The notes beneath the pieces were generated by a model. The model saw only the letters and a list, made by a program, of their open reading frames with translations. It was not told the origin of the DNA and ran no database searches. The translations under genes were made by a program, and so were the position numbers. A DNA stretch of 64,000 nucleotides from an uncultured Verrucomicrobiae bacterium (GTDB lineage: Bacteria > Acidobacteriota > Terriglobia > Terriglobales > Acidobacteriaceae): contig OY970299.1 in assembly GCA_963716225.1 (NCBI GenBank), positions 777,397 through 841,396 of the forward strand, given 5' to 3'. The stretch's first letter is position 1, and every line of letters starts with the position of its first letter. Shown here piece after piece: positions 27,972-39,295 of the stretch.

Positions 27972-28033
27972 ATCGGCATTCATCGCATCCCGATTGCTGC
28001 TTCACACTCGCTCACGCGTGCTATCCTCCCCGC

Positions 28034-28828
28034 GTGCCCACCACCCTCGAAGTTTCGGGCCAAACCTCGCGCACTACATCCAGCCGCCACTCGCTGCTCG
28101 TGCGCATCACTCATTGGCTGACCTTCCTCGCCTGTATCGCGCTTCTCCTCACCGGCATCGAGATCCTCATCTCGCACCCGCGCTTCTACTGGGGCGAAAC
28201 CGGAAACGTGAACACGCCCGCACTGTTCTCCTTCCACATCCCCTCCTCGCGAGGCTCCGTGCCAACCGGCTACGGCTACGTCCTTCCGGATCAGAACGGC
28301 TGGAGCCGCTATCTGCATTTCGAAGCCGCCTGGCTGCTCGTCATCACCGGCGCTGTTTATCTCATCTATCTGGTCGCCACTGGCCACCTCCGCCGCAACT
28401 TGTTCCCCACGCGCGAGCAGCGCTCACTTAGCGCCTACACCAGTCGCATCGGCCACTACCTGCGCGGCGCGCGGCCCGATCCAGCCGAGCTCCACACCTA
28501 CAACGTCCTGCAGCGCAGTTCCTATGTGGCCGTCATTTTCGTTCTCTTCCCGCTCATGATCTGGACCGGCCTCGCAATGTCGCCCGCATTCACAGCCGCG
28601 TTCCCCTTCACATCATCTCTGCTCGGCGGCCGCCAGTCCGCGCGCACCATTCATCTGTTTCTCACCTTCGCGCTCGTTCTCTTCGTCATCGTTCATGTCG
28701 CCATGGTGGCGCTCACCGGCTTCCGCGCTCGCATGCGCGCCATCACTCTCGGAACATCTCAGCCCTCTGGAAACGTCACCGGATCGGAAGCGCATCTCGA
28801 TGACGCTCCGGTGAAGGTGCTCCCATGA
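28034..28828 (+). CDS. Cytochrome b/b6 domain membrane protein (Ni/Fe-hydrogenase cyt b-like)
   Basis: RITHW, LHF, YNVLQR, WTGL, ARTIH, IVH heme-ligand histidines. Confidence 0.8.
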   Translation: MPTTLEVSGQTSRTTSSRHSLLVRITHWLTFLACIALLLTGIEILISHPRFYWGETGNVNTPALFSFHIPSSRGSVPTGYGYVLPDQNGWSRYLHFEAAWLLVITGAVYLIYLVATGHLRRNLFPTREQRSLSAYTSRIGHYLRGARPDPAELHTYNVLQRSSYVAVIFVLFPLMIWTGLAMSPAFTAAFPFTSSLLGGRQSARTIHLFLTFALVLFVIVHVAMVALTGFRARMRAITLGTSQPSGNVTGSEAHLDDAPVKVLP

Positions 28829-29580
28829 ACGCCCTCACCCGCCGCAAGCTCCTCACCACCGGCACCGCAGCCCTCGCGGGCGCCACCGGGCTCGCGACCG
28901 CCGCACGCCTCGCTGAAAAGTACGGCCTCATCGCTCCCGATCACGGCAGCCTCTATGGCGCTGGCGAGACCCTCACCTACGCGTGCCAGCGCATCCTCAC
29001 CCAGCACCGCCCCATGCGGGAGTTTCCGCGCAGCATGATCTCCACGCCGTTCGTCAGCCCTTATGGGAAACTGCCGCCCGCCTTCGCCGCCTCACAGTCC
29101 AACAACTTTGCCGACTGGCGTCTCACCGTCGACGGCCTCGTCACTCACCCGCTCTCGCTCTCCGTCGCAGACCTTCGCGCGCTCGCCACACGCAGCCAGA
29201 TCACCGAGATCGCCTGCGAAGAGGGCTGGTCCTACATCGCCGAGTGGATTGGCACGCCGCTCTCGCTCGTCCTGCGCGAAGCCGGCATCAAGCCCGAAGC
29301 TCGTTACGTCGCCTACTTCGGCATTCAGGATGGGCTGTGGGACAGCCTCGACCTGCCCGAAGCGAATCACCCCGGCACCCTGCTCACGTGGGGCATGAAT
29401 GGCGGCGACCTGCCCATTGACTACGGCGCGCCGTTGCGGCTTCGCGTTCCGCGCCAGATCGGCTACAAGAGCCTGAAGTTCCTCACTCGCATCACCGTCA
29501 CCGACTCTCTCAAGCACGTCGGCAAAGGCCTGGGTTCGTCGAACGCCGACGACGGCTACGCCTGGTACGCGGGCATCTAG
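28825..29580 (+). CDS. MsrP/YedY-like molybdopterin oxidoreductase (sulfite oxidase family)
   Basis: RRKLL Tat-like signal, CEEGWS, YGAPLRLRVP, GYKSLK motifs. Confidence 0.85.
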   Translation: MNALTRRKLLTTGTAALAGATGLATAARLAEKYGLIAPDHGSLYGAGETLTYACQRILTQHRPMREFPRSMISTPFVSPYGKLPPAFAASQSNNFADWRLTVDGLVTHPLSLSVADLRALATRSQITEIACEEGWSYIAEWIGTPLSLVLREAGIKPEARYVAYFGIQDGLWDSLDLPEANHPGTLLTWGMNGGDLPIDYGAPLRLRVPRQIGYKSLKFLTRITVTDSLKHVGKGLGSSNADDGYAWYAGI

Positions 29581-30704: not shown

Positions 30705-30818
30705 TTCCGGTGTTTCCGCCCGGGCACATCAAAACTCGCCGCACGTTCCGTTCGCATGATCACAGCGCCGTGTCTTGCCGTCATCGACGCGTCATTTTTA
30801 TCTGTTAGCTTCACTGCT

Positions 30819-31994
30819 GTGAGCAGCGCATATCGATCCAAACTGTTTCTCTTCTTCGCTCTGCTCGGCCTCACACTTTCAATCGCGGGCGTATCCGAAA
30901 TCGCCGCGCAGAAGCTCGTACACTACGCCACACCCCCGGACGCGCATCGCGGCGAGGTCGTCTACAAGCAAGGCTGCATCGCCTGTCATGGCGCGGAAGG
31001 CAAAGGCGCGGACCCCGAATCCACCGTCTTCATCCGTCCCGGCACGTTCCCCGACTTCACTCGCTGCGACCAGACCACGTCCGAGCCCGACTCCGCCTAC
31101 AAAGCCGTCATCCTCCACGGCGGCCACGGCCTCGGCTTCTCGCAGATCATGCCCGCCTTCGGCGACCAGCTCACCGGCCAGCAGATCGACGACGTGATCG
31201 CTTACCTCCGCAGTTTCTGTCACAACGTGCACCACTATCCCGCCGGCGAGCTCAACCTGCCGCGTGCGCTCGTCACTGAGAAAGCCTTCCCTGAAGACGA
31301 GTTCGTTGTCTCCACAACCGCCGACGCCGCTTCACCCGCCTCCTGGACCACTCACTTTATCCACGAGGAGACCTTCGCCGGCCTGCAGCAGATCGAGATC
31401 GACGTCCCCGTCAACTACGCGGTCAATCCGCAAGCGCTGCCGAACAACAACAACTGGACCGCCGGTTTCGGCGACATCACCATCGGGCTCAAGCGCGTTC
31501 TCTTCTCCAACTTCCGTGCCGGTTCCATCGTCAGCGCGCAGGCTGGCTTCCTTTTTCCCACTGGCGACAGCAATCGCGGCTTCGGCGCAGGCACCGCCAC
31601 CTTCGAACCCTTCCTCGCCTACGATCAGCTTCTCGGGGAACGCAACTTCGTCCAGACGCAAATTGGCGGCGACATCACCTTCGATCCCACGAAATCGCCG
31701 CGCAGCCTCTTCTTCAACATCGCCGCGGGTCGCTCCATGGCGCCCGATCACGGCCTCGGCCGCCTCTACACACCCATGCTCGAGGTCACCGGCACGCACG
31801 AGTACACCGCGGGCGCCGGCACCGACCTCAACCTCGTCCCGGAGATGCAGGTCACCGTCTCCAAACGACAGCACATCCGCATAGGCGCCGGCGTCAGCGC
31901 TCCCGTCACCAGCACCTCCGATCGCAAACCGCAAATCATCTTCTACGTACTGTGGGACTGGGCTGAAGGAAACTTCTGGAACGGATGGCGATGA
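30819..31994 (+). CDS. Monoheme cytochrome c fused to a probable outer-membrane beta-barrel
   Basis: Signal peptide, CIACH, distal IMPAF; C-terminal amphipathic strands with GFGDITIGLK and FPTGD. Confidence 0.7.
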   Translation: MSSAYRSKLFLFFALLGLTLSIAGVSEIAAQKLVHYATPPDAHRGEVVYKQGCIACHGAEGKGADPESTVFIRPGTFPDFTRCDQTTSEPDSAYKAVILHGGHGLGFSQIMPAFGDQLTGQQIDDVIAYLRSFCHNVHHYPAGELNLPRALVTEKAFPEDEFVVSTTADAASPASWTTHFIHEETFAGLQQIEIDVPVNYAVNPQALPNNNNWTAGFGDITIGLKRVLFSNFRAGSIVSAQAGFLFPTGDSNRGFGAGTATFEPFLAYDQLLGERNFVQTQIGGDITFDPTKSPRSLFFNIAAGRSMAPDHGLGRLYTPMLEVTGTHEYTAGAGTDLNLVPEMQVTVSKRQHIRIGAGVSAPVTSTSDRKPQIIFYVLWDWAEGNFWNGWR

Positions 31995-33706
31995 ACAGAC
32001 CTCTGCTTGCGTGCGCTCTCTTCAGCGGCTCGCTTCTCGCAGCCATCTTCGCGGCGCGGACGCCGCCGCCCGTCTTCGCGCGTCAACAGAGCCAGCACCC
32101 AACCTCCACCGCACAACTGCAGCCCACCGAAGAAAAGCCGCTCATCGCCTTTGCGCCACATCAAGCGACGGCCTTCCACACCTCGGACCGCTGCGTCGCC
32201 TGCCACAACGGCATGACTTCAGCCAAGGGCGACGCCTTCTCCATCGGCTTCGACTGGCAGGCGAGCGTCATGGCCAACGCCGGTCGCGATCCCTACTGGC
32301 AGGGCAGCATTCGCCGCGAGACCATCGACCACCCCGAATCCTCGCAGTTCATCCAGAACGACTGCTCCATCTGCCACATGCCCGCCGTTCGCCTCGCCGA
32401 CCGCGACGCACATCGCGACACCCACGTGTTCGCACGCTTCCCGTTCCAGAAGCTCTCCGGGAAATCCTCGCAGCTCCAGCGCTCCGCACAGGACGGCGTC
32501 ACCTGCTCCGTCTGCCATCAGATCTCCAAAGATAACCTCGGCGATCCGTCGACCTTCAGCGGCAATCTCGTCATGAATCGCGCCGTCGACTTCGACATCC
32601 GTCCCGAGTACGGTCCCTTTGCACCCGACCACGGCCATCAGACGATGATGCATTCCTCGACCGGCGGCTTCCTGCCCGAGGAGGCCGCGCACATTCGCGA
32701 CGCCGCGCTCTGCGCCGGCTGCCACACCCTCATCACCACACCGCTCGGCCCCGGCGGCAAACAGCTCGGCCACTTTCCCGAACAAGTGCCCTACCAGGAA
32801 TGGCAGCACAGCGCCTACAACAACAAGCGCACCTGCCAGGACTGCCACATGCCGCCCGTTAACGGCGCCACTCCCATCACCGCGCTCTATGGCCAACTTC
32901 GCGACGGCGCGCGCCACCACTACTTCATCGGCGGCAACTTTTTTCTGCAGTCACTCCTGGATGAACACCGCGATGATCTCAAGACTGTCGCGCGCAGCGA
33001 AGACCTCGAAGCGGCCGCCAGGCGCACCGCGGAATTCCTCGGCACGCAATCCGCGCGCGTCACCATCGAGCACCCTGTCCTCTCCGCCGGCAAACTCTCC
33101 TTCACCGTGTTCACCGAAAACCTCACCGGCCACAAGCTCCCCACCGCTTACCCGTCACGACGCGCGTGGCTGCACGTCACCGTCACGGACTCCGGCGGCC
33201 GCACCGTCTTTGAATCCGGCGCGCTCCGCCCCGACGGTTCCATCATCGGCAACGCGAATGATGACGACAAAACCCGCTTCGAGCCTCACTTTCGCGAGAT
33301 CACACGCCCCGAGCAAGTTGAAATCTACGAGCCTATCCTCGGCGACATGAACGGCCACGTCACCACCGGCCTGCTGAACACCGTCCGCTACCTGAAGGAC
33401 AACCGCATCCTTCCCGCGGGCTTCGACAAGTCCACCGCCACACCGGACATCGCCGTCTACGGCAACGCCGCCGACGACCCCGACTTCACGGCCGGCGGCA
33501 GCCGCATCCGCTACATCGTCCCGACCAACAGCGCGACCGGCCCGCTGCACATTAAGATCGAGCTGCTCTATCAACCCATCGGCTTCCGCTGGGCCCACAA
33601 CCTGGAGCCCTACAAGGCCGCCGAGCCGCAGCGCATCCTCCACTACTACCAGACCGCCTCGACCCGCACGGCCACGACCCTCGCCAGTACCGAAGCGACA
33701 AGGTGA
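31991..33706 (+). CDS. Five-heme c-type cytochrome (c554-like)
   Basis: CVACH, CSICH, CSVCH, CAGCH, CQDCH; signal peptide; ATGA overlap with upstream gene. Confidence 0.9.
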   Translation: MNRPLLACALFSGSLLAAIFAARTPPPVFARQQSQHPTSTAQLQPTEEKPLIAFAPHQATAFHTSDRCVACHNGMTSAKGDAFSIGFDWQASVMANAGRDPYWQGSIRRETIDHPESSQFIQNDCSICHMPAVRLADRDAHRDTHVFARFPFQKLSGKSSQLQRSAQDGVTCSVCHQISKDNLGDPSTFSGNLVMNRAVDFDIRPEYGPFAPDHGHQTMMHSSTGGFLPEEAAHIRDAALCAGCHTLITTPLGPGGKQLGHFPEQVPYQEWQHSAYNNKRTCQDCHMPPVNGATPITALYGQLRDGARHHYFIGGNFFLQSLLDEHRDDLKTVARSEDLEAAARRTAEFLGTQSARVTIEHPVLSAGKLSFTVFTENLTGHKLPTAYPSRRAWLHVTVTDSGGRTVFESGALRPDGSIIGNANDDDKTRFEPHFREITRPEQVEIYEPILGDMNGHVTTGLLNTVRYLKDNRILPAGFDKSTATPDIAVYGNAADDPDFTAGGSRIRYIVPTNSATGPLHIKIELLYQPIGFRWAHNLEPYKAAEPQRILHYYQTASTRTATTLASTEATR

Positions 33707-33724: not shown

Positions 33725-34855
33725 TCAGCGCACCATCACCGGGTGCGCCACTACAGCGTTATACAAATATCCGCCATCGTTCCACGGCACGGTATCAGGT
33801 TGCGTCCGCCCGCGATCGTCAGTCGCTCGCACGCGTACGTCGTGCCTGCCTGGCGTCGGCTCCCACGCAAAGCTCCACCTTCTCCAGCAGCCCTGGATGT
33901 TGACTTCGTCCAGCGCCGCGCGTCTCCATTCCCCGCCATCGATGCTGTACATGACCTCGGCCACCTTCGCCTCACCGGCAAACGATCGCCCCCGAATCAC
34001 CTTCACGCGACTCGACAGCTCCGCCGGCCAATCCAGGTCCAGCACACTCATCACCGGCATCTCCGTGATCGCAGGTCCCGGCGCCAAACCCTCCCTCGCA
34101 TACTCCGGCCCCACCATCGTGTACAGCTCCGTGTTGAACCGCGAATAAAGCCGCTCTTCCGCAACTTCGATTGCGCTCACCCACTTGATATTCGCCGCGC
34201 CCGTCCACCCACTCACCAGCACTCGCACCGGATATCCGTGATCCATCGGCAGCGTCTCGCCATTCATCTTCAACACCAGCAGAGTGTCGTCGCGCATCGC
34301 CTTCTCGGCGGGCATCGGACGCCGTCCTCGCTCTTCATCCAGTCCGATCGGCATCACATCGCGCACACTCTGCTTCACTCCAGCCTTGGCCAGCACATCG
34401 CGTAACCGTACGCCCGTCCACTCAGCGCAGCCCATCGCCCCCATGCCCCATTGCCCACCGTCGGCCTTCTTCCCAAACTGCTCCTTGAAAAATCGCCGCC
34501 CATTCCCCGCGCATTCGATCGTCCGGATCAGCGTCACCTGCGGCATCGCCTCGAGCTCTTCGTAGGTCAGTTCCACCGGCCTCTCAACTCCGCTTCCATA
34601 AATCCTCAGCCGATAGCTCGCCATCTCAACCATCGGCGTAGAACTGTGACTCCGCACATAGAAGCGTTCGTTTGGCGTAATCAGGCTCTCGAACGCGCTC
34701 GGACGCGTCTCAAACTCCGTCCCACTTCCTATATCCCGGAATATCCCCTTCGGCACCGGCTTGAACACGCGCCTTCTGCGCCTGGCAGCGACCACCACAC
34801 CGATCGTGGCAACACTTGCACCCAACGCAGCCCAGAAAGTTCTCCTGCCCACCAA
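33725..34855 (-). CDS. Tat-exported sulfite oxidase-family molybdoenzyme (SorA/SoxC-like)
   Basis: RRTFW signal, FYVRSH, ECAGNGR, EWTGV, MNGETLPMDHGYPVR, IKW, C-terminal dimerisation domain; AGGAGG RBS before TTG at 34855. Confidence 0.88.
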   Translation of the reverse strand: MVGRRTFWAALGASVATIGVVVAARRRRRVFKPVPKGIFRDIGSGTEFETRPSAFESLITPNERFYVRSHSSTPMVEMASYRLRIYGSGVERPVELTYEELEAMPQVTLIRTIECAGNGRRFFKEQFGKKADGGQWGMGAMGCAEWTGVRLRDVLAKAGVKQSVRDVMPIGLDEERGRRPMPAEKAMRDDTLLVLKMNGETLPMDHGYPVRVLVSGWTGAANIKWVSAIEVAEERLYSRFNTELYTMVGPEYAREGLAPGPAITEMPVMSVLDLDWPAELSSRVKVIRGRSFAGEAKVAEVMYSIDGGEWRRAALDEVNIQGCWRRWSFAWEPTPGRHDVRVRATDDRGRTQPDTVPWNDGGYLYNAVVAHPVMVR

Positions 34856-35097
34856 CCCTCCTCCTGCCCACCGATCCAACACCCTAGCACGCGCTTCGGT
34901 GCATCGACCTGAAGTCGCCGCTCCGCCAGAGAATCACGCCACTTCGAGCGCCTCGCTCAAATACCGCGCTGTCTTGCTCCCCGCGCAGACGCAACTCGCT
35001 CCGGCACACCTTGCGCGACAATCCAACACCCGCCTCCCGCACGCTCCTCACGATATTGCTTCCCCGCGTACTCCGCGCAGTGCTACCCTTCCGCGCG

Positions 35098-36842: not shown

Positions 36843-39295
36843 GTGGACCATTTGTTTCGCCACACGCTTAGCCGGCTTCCGCTCGTTCTTTTCCTCACAT
36901 CGTTCATCTCCTTGGGCCTGCTCGGCTGCGGCGGCTCCTCCTCAGGTTCAGGCGGAACGCAGTCTCAACCTGACTTCTCGCTCGTTGTCTCGCCGGCGAG
37001 CCTGGCGCTCAGCGCCGGCACTTCCGACAGCAGTGGCTTCATTCGGGTCGTGCCTTTAAACGGCTTCACCGGTACCGTCACACTCTCTGTCTCCGGCCTT
37101 CCTTCCGGTGTCGGTGCGTCGCTCCCTTTGGTCACCATCAACACATCCGGAAGCACGAACATCATCCTGAGCGCGTCGCCGACCGCGCCTCTCGTTTCAA
37201 ACCAGACCATGACGGTGCAGGCCGTTGGCGGCAACATCACCCACACCGGAACTATTTCGCTTACCGTCACCAGCCCGCAGCCGCCGGATTTCACGATCTC
37301 CGCCCCCAGCACCTTCAACATCTATCCCGGCTTCATGACAGCACTCAACTACACCACGGGCAGTGTCGCCGGCTACAACACGCCGATCAACGTCACCCTC
37401 TCCGGGCTTCCGCCCGGCATCACCGACAACGTCTCATCAGTGTCCAACTTGCCCGGCAACCCGACGATTTCACCCTCTACGTCGCCGCGAACGCCAGCAC
37501 CTCGGCGACCGTCACCCTAACCGCCACCAGCGGCACCATCACCCACGTCGTTCAAACCACACTCAACGTCATCACCACGCCGGACTTCGGCTTCGGCGTC
37601 ATTGGGAACGGAATCTATCCGTTTAACGGCAGCGTTCTTGACCAGCAAATCTTCGACTTCGTGCCTTACAACGGCTTCAACGCACCCGTTACCGTCACCA
37701 TCGGCCCTATACCCGACGACATCACCATCTCCCCCACCACCTTCACCATCCCCTCACCGACCCACTCGCCAAACCTCACCATCACAGTTCCTGAGGACCT
37801 CCCACCTCGGCCCGTCAGCATTCCCGTTCAAGCGACCAGCGGCACACTCTCTCACTCGATCACGTGGACCATCAATGTGCTGCTGAACGGCCCGGTCCTC
37901 AACCTGGAGCACTTCGCGGGCGACCCGCACGCAGGCTCATTTACCACTGTCTACGTTGACGTCACTACGAACGCCGGCAGCAACACCATCGGCACGTCCG
38001 CCCTGTCTGTTATCAGCGCACCCGCGGGAATAACCGTCTCCCCCCTGCTGACGACCTTCACAGGCCAGGGAGCGCAGCTCTTCAACATCCAGGCCACACC
38101 CAATGCTCAAAACGGAAACATCACCTTCCAGGACACATGGAACGGCGTCACCGTAACTGCGACACTACCCATCACCGTTCTCGCTGCAACTTCCAACAGC
38201 AGGACATCCACTCACACACATGGCGCTTACATCCGTTCCAGCTCCACGGCCGACTACCGCGCCTTCCCGCTCGTCAGCTGGTCCCTCTACGACGCCGGCA
38301 CCGCCCGCTTCTTCGCCGCCGACTACGCCACCGGCCGCCTCAACGTCTACGATTCCGTCGCCGAAAAGCAGATTGCATCTCTCGTCATCCCCGGCGCCTT
38401 TGGCATCGGCCAGTCCAGCGGCGACCATACCATCTACGTCGGAACTCTCTCCGGCGACATCTACCTCGTCGATCCCGTCGCGCTGACCATCACCCAGCGC
38501 ATCCCGTCATTCAGCATCGGCTCTTCCGGCTTCGCCGCCAATGCCGTCTTCCCGCGACAGGACGGGACCCTGCTCCTGGAAAGCTACTCTCACGTACCCG
38601 GCTTTCCCTCGGCGGACGGCTCCAATCACTTTGCTCTCTGGAATCCCGCGACGAACGCACTCCTCACCGTTCCCGGCTGTAACACTGGCTCCGGCCCCGC
38701 ACGTACTCTGTTCGGTATCCCCACCAGCAACGGCGCACGCCTGCTCACCCTCGCCGGGAATCCCGCGTCTGCCGCCACTCTTCTCTGCTCCATCGACCTC
38801 ACCACCGGCAACTTCTCTAACCTCACCGCCGACTCTGAGGCTGCCATCAACACGCTCGCCGTATGTCCTGACGGCAATACCGTAGCCGGTTTCGACCGCG
38901 CAAATATCTGGGTGGTCGACGCCGCCACCCTCGCCGTCAAAAACAAATTCCCTGTTCCCGCCTCCGGTTCACTCTCCGGAGACGCCAGCATGCTCATCAC
39001 GCCCGATAACCAGACCGTCTACATTACCGGCGCTGATAAGAAGAACCTGGTTCTAGCCTTCAACCTATCCACGGGCCAACTCATCGGCTCGATGCCCGCT
39101 ATTCCGGTGGACACAGACGGCAGTGATATCCCCTCAGCTCCCATTCCCCAGGGTCTCAGTTCCAACGGCCTCCTCGGAGGGGTCCTGGAGCAGGGCTTCG
39201 CCTTCATTGACACAACGGCCATCAATCCGCCCCCGACCCCCACAACGTCCTCCCAACGGAGTTCGGCCGCCGCCTCTTCCTCGCCGCGCAACTAG
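36843..39295 (+). CDS. Large lipoprotein with Ig-like repeats and beta-propeller-like region, frameshift near 37460
   Basis: Lipobox LLGC; three PDF...(F/Y)xxxxxxxxxxxP repeats; S/T-rich beta-strands. Confidence 0.7.

Follow-up and report, generated by a model that had tools for sequence, protein, structure and literature searches.

In the outer-membrane systems MtrCAB, PioAB, MtoAB and Pcc, 26-strand barrels sheathe a decaheme wire that is accompanied by lipoprotein cytochromes at the cell surface. [quoted passage not shown] In Geobacter sulfurreducens, the extHIJKL cluster encodes the outer-membrane channel protein ExtI beside the pentaheme cytochrome ExtKL, which is identical to MccSep, a periplasmic tetrameric polysulfide/selenite reductase (PMC13510729). 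Here, we describe a two-gene locus at positions 30,819 to 33,706 of a 64,000-nucleotide stretch of an Acidobacteriaceae genome (assembly GCA_963716225.1, contig OY970299.1, positions 777,397 to 841,396; hereafter the window). The first gene (gene 1) encodes a monoheme cytochrome c fused to a predicted outer-membrane barrel, and the second (gene 2) encodes a pentaheme cytochrome that is translationally coupled to it. The strict pairing of such a heme-barrel fusion with a pentaheme cytochrome points to a redox function of the envelope that has gone unrecognised.

The N-terminal half of gene 1 contains the following features, with protein positions given in amino acids (aa).

30819..31994, + strand: gene 1, a monoheme class-I cytochrome c fused to a predicted 12-stranded outer-membrane barrel (open reading frame, Pfam and AlphaFold2)
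30819..30908, + strand: signal peptide, aa 1 to about 30 (sequence and AlphaFold2 model)
30939..31223, + strand: class-I cytochrome c domain, aa 41-135 (Pfam PF00034/PF13442)
30975-30989, + strand: CxxCH heme-binding motif, C53-H57
31149-31154, + strand: Met111-Pro112

The open reading frame of gene 1 runs for 391 aa from a GTG start at 30819 to a stop at 31994; an upstream ATG at 30756 is possible, but the starts of homologues align with the GTG. The N-terminus has a basic n-region (RSK), a hydrophobic helix spanning aa 4-29 in the model and an IAA end that would precede the putative cleavage site, and this segment is poorly conserved across the alignment, as is typical of signal peptides. 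The single CxxCH lies inside a Pfam Cytochrom_C/Cytochrome_CBB3 match (PF00034, PF13442; aa 41-132, E about 1e-10), and profile matches of the domain in the PDB are the CcoP, c552 and c6 domains. C53, C56 and H57 do not vary in an alignment of 50 sequences extending down to 28% identity, and conservation of M111, P112, C83 and C134 is at least 90% at each position. This pattern is consistent with His/Met ligation of the heme and with a disulfide between C83 and C134. We took class-I c-type cytochromes to have a single CxxCH near the domain N-terminus, a Met about 50-60 residues on and a helical fold; gene 1 has the N-terminal CxxCH, the distal Met and, in the model, a helical domain at aa 42-131. 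A first-pass annotation made from the window's letters had read a signal peptide, one CxxCH and a distal Met in this gene, and the open reading frame, Pfam and alignment confirm each of them.

The C-terminal part of gene 1 is organized as follows.

31224..31298, + strand: linker before strand 1, aa 136-160 (...PAGELNLPRALVTEKAFPED; ...GELNLPRALVTEKAFPED), candidate lumen-occluding segment
31299..31958, + strand: predicted 12-stranded beta-barrel, aa 161-380 (DSSP, Foldseek, PF13557)
31557-31610, + strand: loop L3 with conserved P247-T248-G249 (alignment)
31959..31991, + strand: aromatic C-terminal tail WAEGNFWNGWR (family conservation)

The AlphaFold2 model of gene 1, built with a 50-sequence alignment, has a pLDDT of 90.9 and a pTM of 0.84, and DSSP assigns to it the helical domain, a mostly non-regular linker and 12 strands within aa 161-380. 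A direct sequence search (phmmer) of the barrel alone against the PDB returned no match, so fold comparison was required. Against the PDB, Foldseek matched the barrel to FapF (5O68, E 4e-9) and to the COG4313 channel Pput2725 (4RL8, E 6e-8), and the 12-stranded porins KdgM and NanC were recovered with target-normalised TM values of 0.73-0.76; the autotransporter barrels EspP and Hbp ranked lower (E about 5e-5 to 8e-5). Given the 12 modelled strands and these matches, we assign the C-terminal domain to the COG4313/FapF class of outer-membrane barrels, as a closed barrel of 12 strands. The annotation had likened this region to the barrels of the MetA-pathway family, and that assignment holds: aa 204-359 match PF13557 (Phenol_MetA_deg) with 30.3 bits against a cut-off of 22, a precomputed match found in about half of the gene 1 homologues, and the Foldseek match to COG4313 agrees with it. 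The structure prediction likewise returned the closed barrel that the annotation expected, rather than a soluble-type domain.

Family-level conservation provides further detail on the barrel. Across the 50 sequences, conservation of P247, T248 and G249 is at least 80% at each position, and COG4313 channels possess a conserved cluster that includes Pro-Thr-Gly in loop L3 (PMC4493636), the equivalence to Pput2725 being taken from the family description, without a residue-by-residue alignment. The most conserved segment of gene 1 is the linker at aa 136-160. Its mean top-residue frequency is 0.70, while the cytochrome domain reaches 0.56 and the strands about 0.5. This linker is modelled with block pLDDT values of 91-97, mostly as coil with two 3-residue helical turns. 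In the COG4313 channel structure, the lumen is 10-12 Å wide and is nearly wholly occluded by roughly 14 residues that precede strand 1 and enter from the periplasmic side; the authors of that structure propose uptake of hydrophobic molecules, possibly via a lateral opening (PMC4493636). By homology with this N-terminal segment, the gene 1 linker probably sits in the barrel lumen. The tail that closes the protein has the family consensus LWDWxDGxFxxGW and may serve as a barrel-assembly signal.

The strand connections of the model provide a rationale for the orientation of the barrel. The odd connections (1, 3, 5, 7, 9 and 11) total 56 aa and the even ones 27 aa, and the least conserved segments of gene 1 (L1, L2, L5 and L6) are all among the odd connections. 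Long and poorly conserved connections are the usual signature of extracellular loops, which argues that both termini of gene 1 are periplasmic. The cytochrome domain is thereby predicted to hang at the periplasmic mouth of the barrel. A competing reading takes the pair as a true trans-outer-membrane conduit, which would exchange electrons with solid Fe, Mn or humic material or with an electrode, either through a heme inside or through the barrel or through a cytochrome displayed at the surface like an autotransporter passenger. An N-terminal domain followed by a linker and a C-terminal 12-strand barrel is indeed the layout of a type Va autotransporter, and the EspP and Hbp fold matches fit it, but the model contains no continuous alpha-helical linker, which is the pore-spanning element typical of autotransporters. 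A folded holo-cytochrome is also a poor autotransporter passenger. In addition, the 12 strands of gene 1 compare with 26 in MtrB/PioB and 16 in Cyc2, gene 1 has no match to the MtrB_PioB Pfam family at E up to 0.01, and its heme domain is a globular class-I domain of roughly 95 aa that loop length and conservation place on the periplasmic side.

Gene 2 follows directly, with the features below.

31991..31994, + strand: ATGA overlap of the gene 1 stop (TGA) and gene 2 start (ATG) (sequence)
31991..33706, + strand: gene 2, a secreted pentaheme cytochrome with the predicted c552/ExtKL (PHC) fold, 571 aa (CxxCH, Pfam and Foldseek)
32168..32980, + strand: alpha-helical five-heme cap, aa about 60-330 (CxxCH and model, low confidence)
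32981..33703, + strand: C-terminal beta-sandwich (Ig-like) domain (model)
33119-33175, + strand: invariant loop N377..G380-H381-K382-x-P384-T385-x-x-P388-S389-R390-R391 in the Ig-like domain

Gene 2 starts with the ATG at 31991 and carries exactly five CxxCH motifs (aa 68, 125, 172, 241 and 282), which are invariant among its homologues; the first-pass annotation's account of an ATGA-coupled gene with five CxxCH is thus borne out by the sequence. The model of gene 2 has an overall pLDDT of 65.8 and a pTM of 0.70, with the heme cap at 40-80, as expected of modelling without hemes, and the blocks of the C-terminal half mostly at 70-93. Its only PDB match below 1e-3 by Foldseek is the pentaheme c552 of Thermochromatium tepidum (5ZE8, E 2.5e-9, probability 1.0). 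This is also the only PDB entry reached by sequence profile (E 0.04), through one loop after heme 5 that aligns with c552 residues 292-340 and with positions 295-338 of the NCBIfam ExtKL model (NF040886). The loop conforms to the PHC pattern N-x-x-x-H-x-[ILM]-P-x-x-X-P, reading NLTGHKLPTAYP at aa 377-388 of gene 2 and NLQPHAMPTGAP in c552, and in gene 2 homologues it is invariant except at positions 378, 379, 383, 386 and 387. [quoted passage not shown] The secondary-structure layout of gene 2 agrees with this PHC fold, and gene 2 is predicted to belong to the family, with a helical five-heme cap and an Ig-like beta-sandwich. In Acidipila rosea, the gene 2 homologue (L001 9225-11057) is 610 aa long; its N-terminus is extended by a long low-complexity stretch, and a segment of about 28 residues, rich in Ser, Asn and Thr, is inserted between hemes 4 and 5.

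The location of gene 2 can be judged from its N-terminus and from its relatives. Gene 2 has a signal peptide, and its sole Cys outside the CxxCH motifs lies within that peptide (position 8, in the hydrophobic core) and is not conserved, leaving none in the mature protein. We rejected a lipoprotein assignment for gene 2 on these grounds, and there is no lipobox. Its relative MccSep, the one member of the fold family to have been fractionated, is periplasmic (PMC13510729). Given the signal peptide, the missing lipobox and the periplasmic relative, we read gene 2 as a soluble periplasmic protein. This bears on the trans-membrane conduit described above, for which a lipobox-free 60-kDa protein of the c552/MccSep fold and the lack of secretion genes linked to the pair are both unfavorable. 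A match of gene 2 to Pfam PF22113 (MtrC/MtrF domain II/IV; 34 bits against a cut-off of 30) is the resemblance to MtrC/MtrF pentaheme domains that speaks for the conduit. On balance, we consider it highly improbable that a heme or a displayed cytochrome crosses the outer membrane here. The first-pass annotation had offered two options, and the compact porin-cytochrome conduit in the Mtr/Pcc sense is not supported, given the strand count, the occluded lumen of the homologue and the placement of both cytochromes. What the anatomy suggests is nearer to its other option, that of uptake or a channel coupled to redox chemistry.

The invariant loop of gene 2 raises the question of catalysis. In MccSep, the aligned loop carries a selenocysteine (Sec), and heme 2 is ligated by a Cys (PMC13510729). 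By analogy with MccSep/ExtKL beside the ExtI porin, it is conceivable that gene 2 is itself the catalyst and that, as a multiheme enzyme of the periplasm, it reduces or oxidises a solute taken in via the gene 1 barrel (sulfur, selenium or nitrogen oxyanions, or polysulfide), with the fused cytochrome serving only as dock and electron donor or acceptor. The fold family does include a proven periplasmic polysulfide/selenite reductase encoded beside a porin gene, gene 2 keeps invariant the loop on which MccSep carries its catalytic Sec, and an invariant Met220 lies between hemes 3 and 4, roughly at the position of the heme-ligating Cys of MccSep. However, when the MccSep peptide NHAGHSIPDGUP is aligned with aa 377-388, and the published Sec peptide (...NHAGHSIPDGUPTPNR) is set against that of gene 2 (...NLTGHKLPTAYPSRR), Tyr387 stands at the Sec position, and homologues have Tyr or Phe there. 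With Tyr or Phe at this position and no Cys outside the heme motifs, gene 2 cannot perform MccSep chemistry, which we rejected as its function. In pairs down to 46% identity, the non-motif His residues H114, H310, H381, H395 and H433 are invariant, as are M94, M130, M220 and M287. Five invariant non-motif His residues equal the need of five six-coordinate hemes, with no open coordination site evident. This favors, but does not prove, an electron-transfer role over a substrate-binding heme. Against the NCBIfam ExtKL model, whose cut-off is 250 bits, gene 2 reaches 18.4, and it lacks a CxxCK. An NrfA-type nitrite reductase was likewise rejected for want of that motif, the sole NCBIfam match in this direction being weak, local and to NrfH.

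The association of the two genes extends well beyond the window. Among scored candidates there are about 3000 homologues of gene 1 and about 7000 of gene 2, and the source records give them no names beyond 'mono/diheme cytochrome c family protein', 'c-type cytochrome' or 'hypothetical protein'; those that are named belong to Edaphobacter, Acidipila and Granulicella. When representatives at 50% identity were searched exhaustively, 149 gene 1 clusters were returned at E up to 1e-30; full-length members retain both domains down to about 30% identity, and divergent ones are labelled Longimicrobiales (Gemmatimonadota) and Thermoanaerobaculia. A gene 2 homologue directly follows gene 1 in 76 of 79 distinct genome loci, and the contigs of the other 3 end at gene 1. 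The ATGA junction is present in 69 of the 76, and the same 4-nt overlap recurs in the distant loci L083-L087. In five divergent loci with gene 1 at 30-40% identity to the window protein, including a Longimicrobiales metagenome-assembled genome (MAG), gene 2 abuts or overlaps the end of gene 1 in every case. A distant clade of 84 mostly metagenomic loci has the pair in 67 of the 72 with downstream room, one locus in which the two genes are divergently adjacent, and three or four with gene 1 alone. The co-occurrence expected by the first-pass annotation is therefore found across phyla. That annotation had also named a soluble C-terminal domain, a location away from the outer membrane and a lack of co-occurrence as fatal to its reading, and none of the three was found.

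Several individual loci merit description. In the distant clade, L123, L140/L165 and possibly L125 have a cytochrome-barrel gene with no pentaheme gene downstream, and in L155 the pentaheme gene lies upstream on the opposite strand and is apparently frameshifted or interrupted by an N. Pairs that are 55-66% identical to that of the window occur on contigs labelled Acetobacteraceae, Actinomycetota, Dormiibacterota, Udaeobacter, Rhodanobacteraceae and Saccharimonadales (L006, L009, L030, L031, L034, L059 and L064); at such identity to Acidobacteriaceae sequences, binning errors are likelier than lateral transfer as the source of these odd labels. In the Acidobacteriota HIE bin25 MAG, two contigs (L050 and L073) hold one pair each, with gene 1 57% and 52% identical to that of the window, so that some genomes may hold two paralogous modules.

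Nothing else near the pair is conserved to a comparable extent. In an all-against-all comparison of flanking open reading frames across the 79 genome loci, no cluster occurred in more than 6 loci, and the 84 loci of the distant clade again gave a maximum of 6 per cluster. A Pfam scan of 133 immediate neighbors found no family in more than 4, and neighboring genes are randomly oriented around the pair. Since the pairing is near-obligate and nothing else is conserved nearby, the pair is a self-contained, translationally coupled two-gene module, with the coupling read from the ATGA overlap in the sequence. Given the homologue numbers, the invariant heme motifs and the ATGA junction, the observed arrangement is far beyond chance.

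Two local associations were considered and set aside. The di-heme peroxidase family CCP_MauG occurs near the pair in L085 and L087 and is not recurrent elsewhere. Nitrogen-oxide-type neighbors are shared by two unrelated lineages (L001; L086 1-7843; L089) across a large evolutionary distance: in Acidipila rosea (L001 7237-15087), the pair stands beside HPP, Rrf2, ScdA/hemerythrin, Crp-family, and Rieske plus DUF6755 genes, and in L086 it lies near a molybdopterin oxidoreductase with a major facilitator superfamily transporter. We rejected a nitrogen-oxide link as more than a weak lead. The presence of the pair in two unrelated genomes beside ScdA/hemerythrin, Crp-family and Rieske/DUF6755 genes is a point in favor of gene 2 as a catalyst, but such neighbors occur in only 2 lineages of about 160 loci. 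Taken with the histidine count and the Tyr/Phe replacement, this leaves catalysis by gene 2 an unlikely explanation, though one to be taken seriously.

We tentatively propose instead that the pair is Cyc2-like in logic only and built from parts unrelated to Cyc2, in that a heme at the channel mouth meets a small solute, a soluble pentaheme protein acts as relay and no heme crosses the membrane, a reading to which we grant somewhat less than an even chance. In this proposal, the narrow 12-stranded COG4313/FapF-type barrel of gene 1 would insert in the outer membrane, the His/Met monoheme domain would be held at its periplasmic mouth, and the conserved linker would probably occlude part of the lumen. 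Gene 2, whose synthesis the ATGA overlap ties to that of gene 1, would be a soluble periplasmic protein that docks on the tethered heme and relays electrons between it and the remaining periplasm. Fusing a cytochrome to an outer-membrane barrel would pay only if its heme has to act at that membrane, and because 12 strands cannot sheath the heme domain, the substrate must come to the heme. A small redox-active solute would thus reach the tethered heme via the channel or via the lateral opening proposed for the family. This solute could be a dissolved species of Fe or Mn or a quinone/phenolic molecule of humic type, and since the barrel family is linked to hydrophobic substrates, quinone/phenolic mediators are as plausible as metal ions.

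The direction of electron flow would depend on the heme potentials. Class-I His/Met hemes are usually high-potential, and the c552 of T. tepidum is reportedly low-potential, to go by the title of Chen et al. 2019. If gene 2 and the class-I domain resemble these relatives, flow toward the outer-membrane heme, and hence reduction of an incoming acceptor, would be favored, because electrons passing from a low-potential gene 2 to a high-potential class-I heme move downhill (both potentials being assumed).

A number of points weigh against this proposal. Where the cytochrome domain lies with respect to the barrel, and how the linker runs, are inferred, and the heme potentials are assumed from relatives. 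COG4313 channels are nearly closed in the crystal and are thought to carry hydrophobic molecules (PMC4493636), which makes the passage of ions doubtful. Three or four distant-clade loci have gene 1 without an adjacent gene 2, no neighbor gene recovered by the flank clustering or the Pfam scan indicates a substrate, and a look for expression in public sequencing runs returned only two, with at most 9% of words. A bolder version of the proposal is that the pair forms a new transmembrane electron route without any heme crossing, in which the COG4313-type barrel presents mediators to the tethered heme. Here, the barrel would open laterally to the lipid phase, as proposed for its family, the mediators would be chelated Fe or Mn or membrane-soluble molecules of quinone, phenolic or humic type, and the link from the tethered heme to respiration would be the soluble pentaheme protein. 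We consider this version quite improbable; if true, it would provide extracellular electron exchange with organic matter and metals by two genes in the dominant soil Acidobacteriaceae, and also in Thermoanaerobaculia and Gemmatimonadota.

The window itself is high-GC (about 62%) chromosomal DNA, and its closest relative by synteny is the Acidobacteriaceae MAG locus L003, at 85-88% protein identity. The following genes lie around the pair.

About 27980-28828, + strand: cytochrome b561-type membrane protein (PF01292), its stop overlapping the next start at 28825
From 28825, within 27980-29580, + strand: 251-aa YedY/MsrP-like molybdopterin oxidoreductase
33725-34882, - strand: SorA/SorT-like sulfite-oxidase-family Mo-enzyme, 385 aa, with Oxidored_molyb and Mo-co_dimer domains and a twin-arginine-like N-terminus
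36843-39295, + strand: consecutive open reading frames of 225 and 544 aa with no Pfam match and Ser/Thr/Pro-rich repetitive segments

The two genes at 27980-29580 form an MsrPQ-like pair, but with a cytochrome b of the Ni_hydr_CYTB family, which L003 and L079, the closest relatives, carry as well, on differing sides of the cytochrome operon. The SorA-like gene and gene 2 are convergent, their stop codons only 18 nt apart; the SorA-like gene has no cytochrome partner gene of its own adjoining it, and its adjacency to gene 2 is not kept in other loci. The 225-aa open reading frame further downstream has a lipoprotein-like N-terminus (LLGCGGSSSGSGG), and the products at 36843-39295 may be cell-surface proteins. 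Along the window, GC skew is -0.2 to -0.32 at about 20 to 42 kb and near zero or slightly positive beyond about 50-54 kb, and G+C falls to 0.555-0.59 at 42-46 kb; these changes may mark a switch in strand bias and a compositionally foreign stretch.

The Mo-enzyme neighbors bear on whether the barrel transports anything. If it were a mere membrane anchor, the pair would carry or store electrons in the periplasm, at the outer membrane, for other redox enzymes of the envelope, and the periplasmic Mo-enzymes of the window (the YedY/MsrP-like protein with its cytochrome b, and the SorA-like protein) are enzymes in need of redox partners. The largely occluded lumen of the COG4313 family and the extreme conservation of the gene 1 linker would also suit an anchor. 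However, outside the window these neighbors are kept only in L003 and L079, its closest relatives; the conserved PTG loop, which belongs to the functional cluster of COG4313, would be unnecessary for an anchor; and tethering by a lipid would cost far less than a barrel of 230 aa. A barrel that is only an anchor is therefore, in our view, rather unlikely.

The proposed tethered-heme channel has implications for soil biology. Acidobacteriaceae are among the most abundant soil and peat bacteria and are regarded as aerobic heterotrophs without Mtr/Omc-type machinery (PMC5900883). Gene clusters for extracellular electron transfer reported from peat Acidobacteriota consist of 8-13-heme cytochromes and Mtr-like porins and do not include this pair. 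The module is structurally clear-cut and widespread in these dominant soil bacteria, with thousands of copies in soil metagenomes. If it exchanges electrons with iron, manganese or humic quinones, it would matter for how carbon is turned over and metals are cycled in acidic soils and peat, and it would be a second, independently evolved solution to the problem solved by Cyc2. A literature search of limited scope turned up no account of a COG4313-type barrel with a fused cytochrome, nor of its pairing with a pentaheme gene.

The comparison with described systems places the pair outside each of them, in agreement with the first-pass annotation, which had set the architecture apart from MtrAB, PioAB, Pcc and Cyc2; strand number, Pfam and motif evidence all separate it. 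As in MtrCAB, PioAB, MtoAB and Pcc, a barrel gene adjoins a multiheme cytochrome gene, and Pfam detects the weak resemblance to the MtrC pentaheme domain, but the large sheathing barrel, the decaheme wire and the surface lipoprotein cytochromes have no counterpart here. We rejected membership of MtrAB, PioAB or MtoAB on the missing MtrB_PioB match, the 12 strands and the five-heme partner of c552 fold. Gene 1 shares with Cyc2 and Cyt572 a single polypeptide with a signal peptide, one N-terminal CxxCH and a C-terminal outer-membrane barrel, and our proposed geometry shares with that of Cyc2 a heme at the periplasmic mouth, a solute that enters the pore and electrons that pass to a periplasmic cytochrome. 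Unlike the 16-stranded, OprP/PorB-like barrels of Cyc2 and Cyt572, that of gene 1 is predicted to be 12-stranded and of the COG4313/FapF class; its heme is housed in a complete class-I domain (about 95 aa), and it has an obligate, translationally coupled pentaheme partner, which Cyc2 lacks. The Cyc2 motif comprises AxPxFAR[Q/K][T/Y] 5 aa upstream of CxxCH and PxL 4 aa downstream (PMC8406198); gene 1 has neither, reading PPDAHRGEVVYKQG upstream of CIACH and GAEGKGAD downstream, and we rejected membership of Cyc2 on this defining motif and on the strand number.

Among COG4313/PF13557 channels (Pput2725, TcpY and SphA), gene 1 finds its likeness in the 12 strands, the Pfam score above threshold, the PTG loop and the conserved segment before strand 1, and it resembles FapF in having a predicted periplasmic N-terminal domain ahead of the putative plug. 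The known roles of this class are uptake of hydrophobic molecules or secretion of amyloid subunits, with no redox chemistry, and no described member carries a cytochrome; gene 1 would be the first redox-domain fusion in the COG4313/FapF barrel family. Gene 2 shares heme order and the post-heme-5 loop with T. tepidum c552 (5ZE8), but is only 17% identical over the fold alignment, and c552 (385-435 aa) has no barrel-fused partner. With ExtI and ExtKL, the pair has in common an outer-membrane channel gene beside a pentaheme gene of the same fold, including the helical five-heme cap, the Ig-like stem and the N..H.[ILM]P..xP loop. ExtI is a larger porin-like protein with no heme, whereas the gene 1 barrel is heme-fused; MccSep has selenocysteine and a Cys-ligated heme 2, and gene 2 has neither; and the pair is without the rhodanese (ExtH) and ExtJ partners of the ext cluster. 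We rejected MccSep membership on the Sec/Cys position, the Cys heme ligand and the NCBIfam score. Gene 2 is about 120 aa longer than ExtKL/MccSep, may fall in the 'large PHC' class, and would add a Sec-free, Cys-free branch to the c552/MccSep fold family. The pair thus combines a channel and a cytochrome, as Cyc2 and ExtI/ExtKL do, in a different build.

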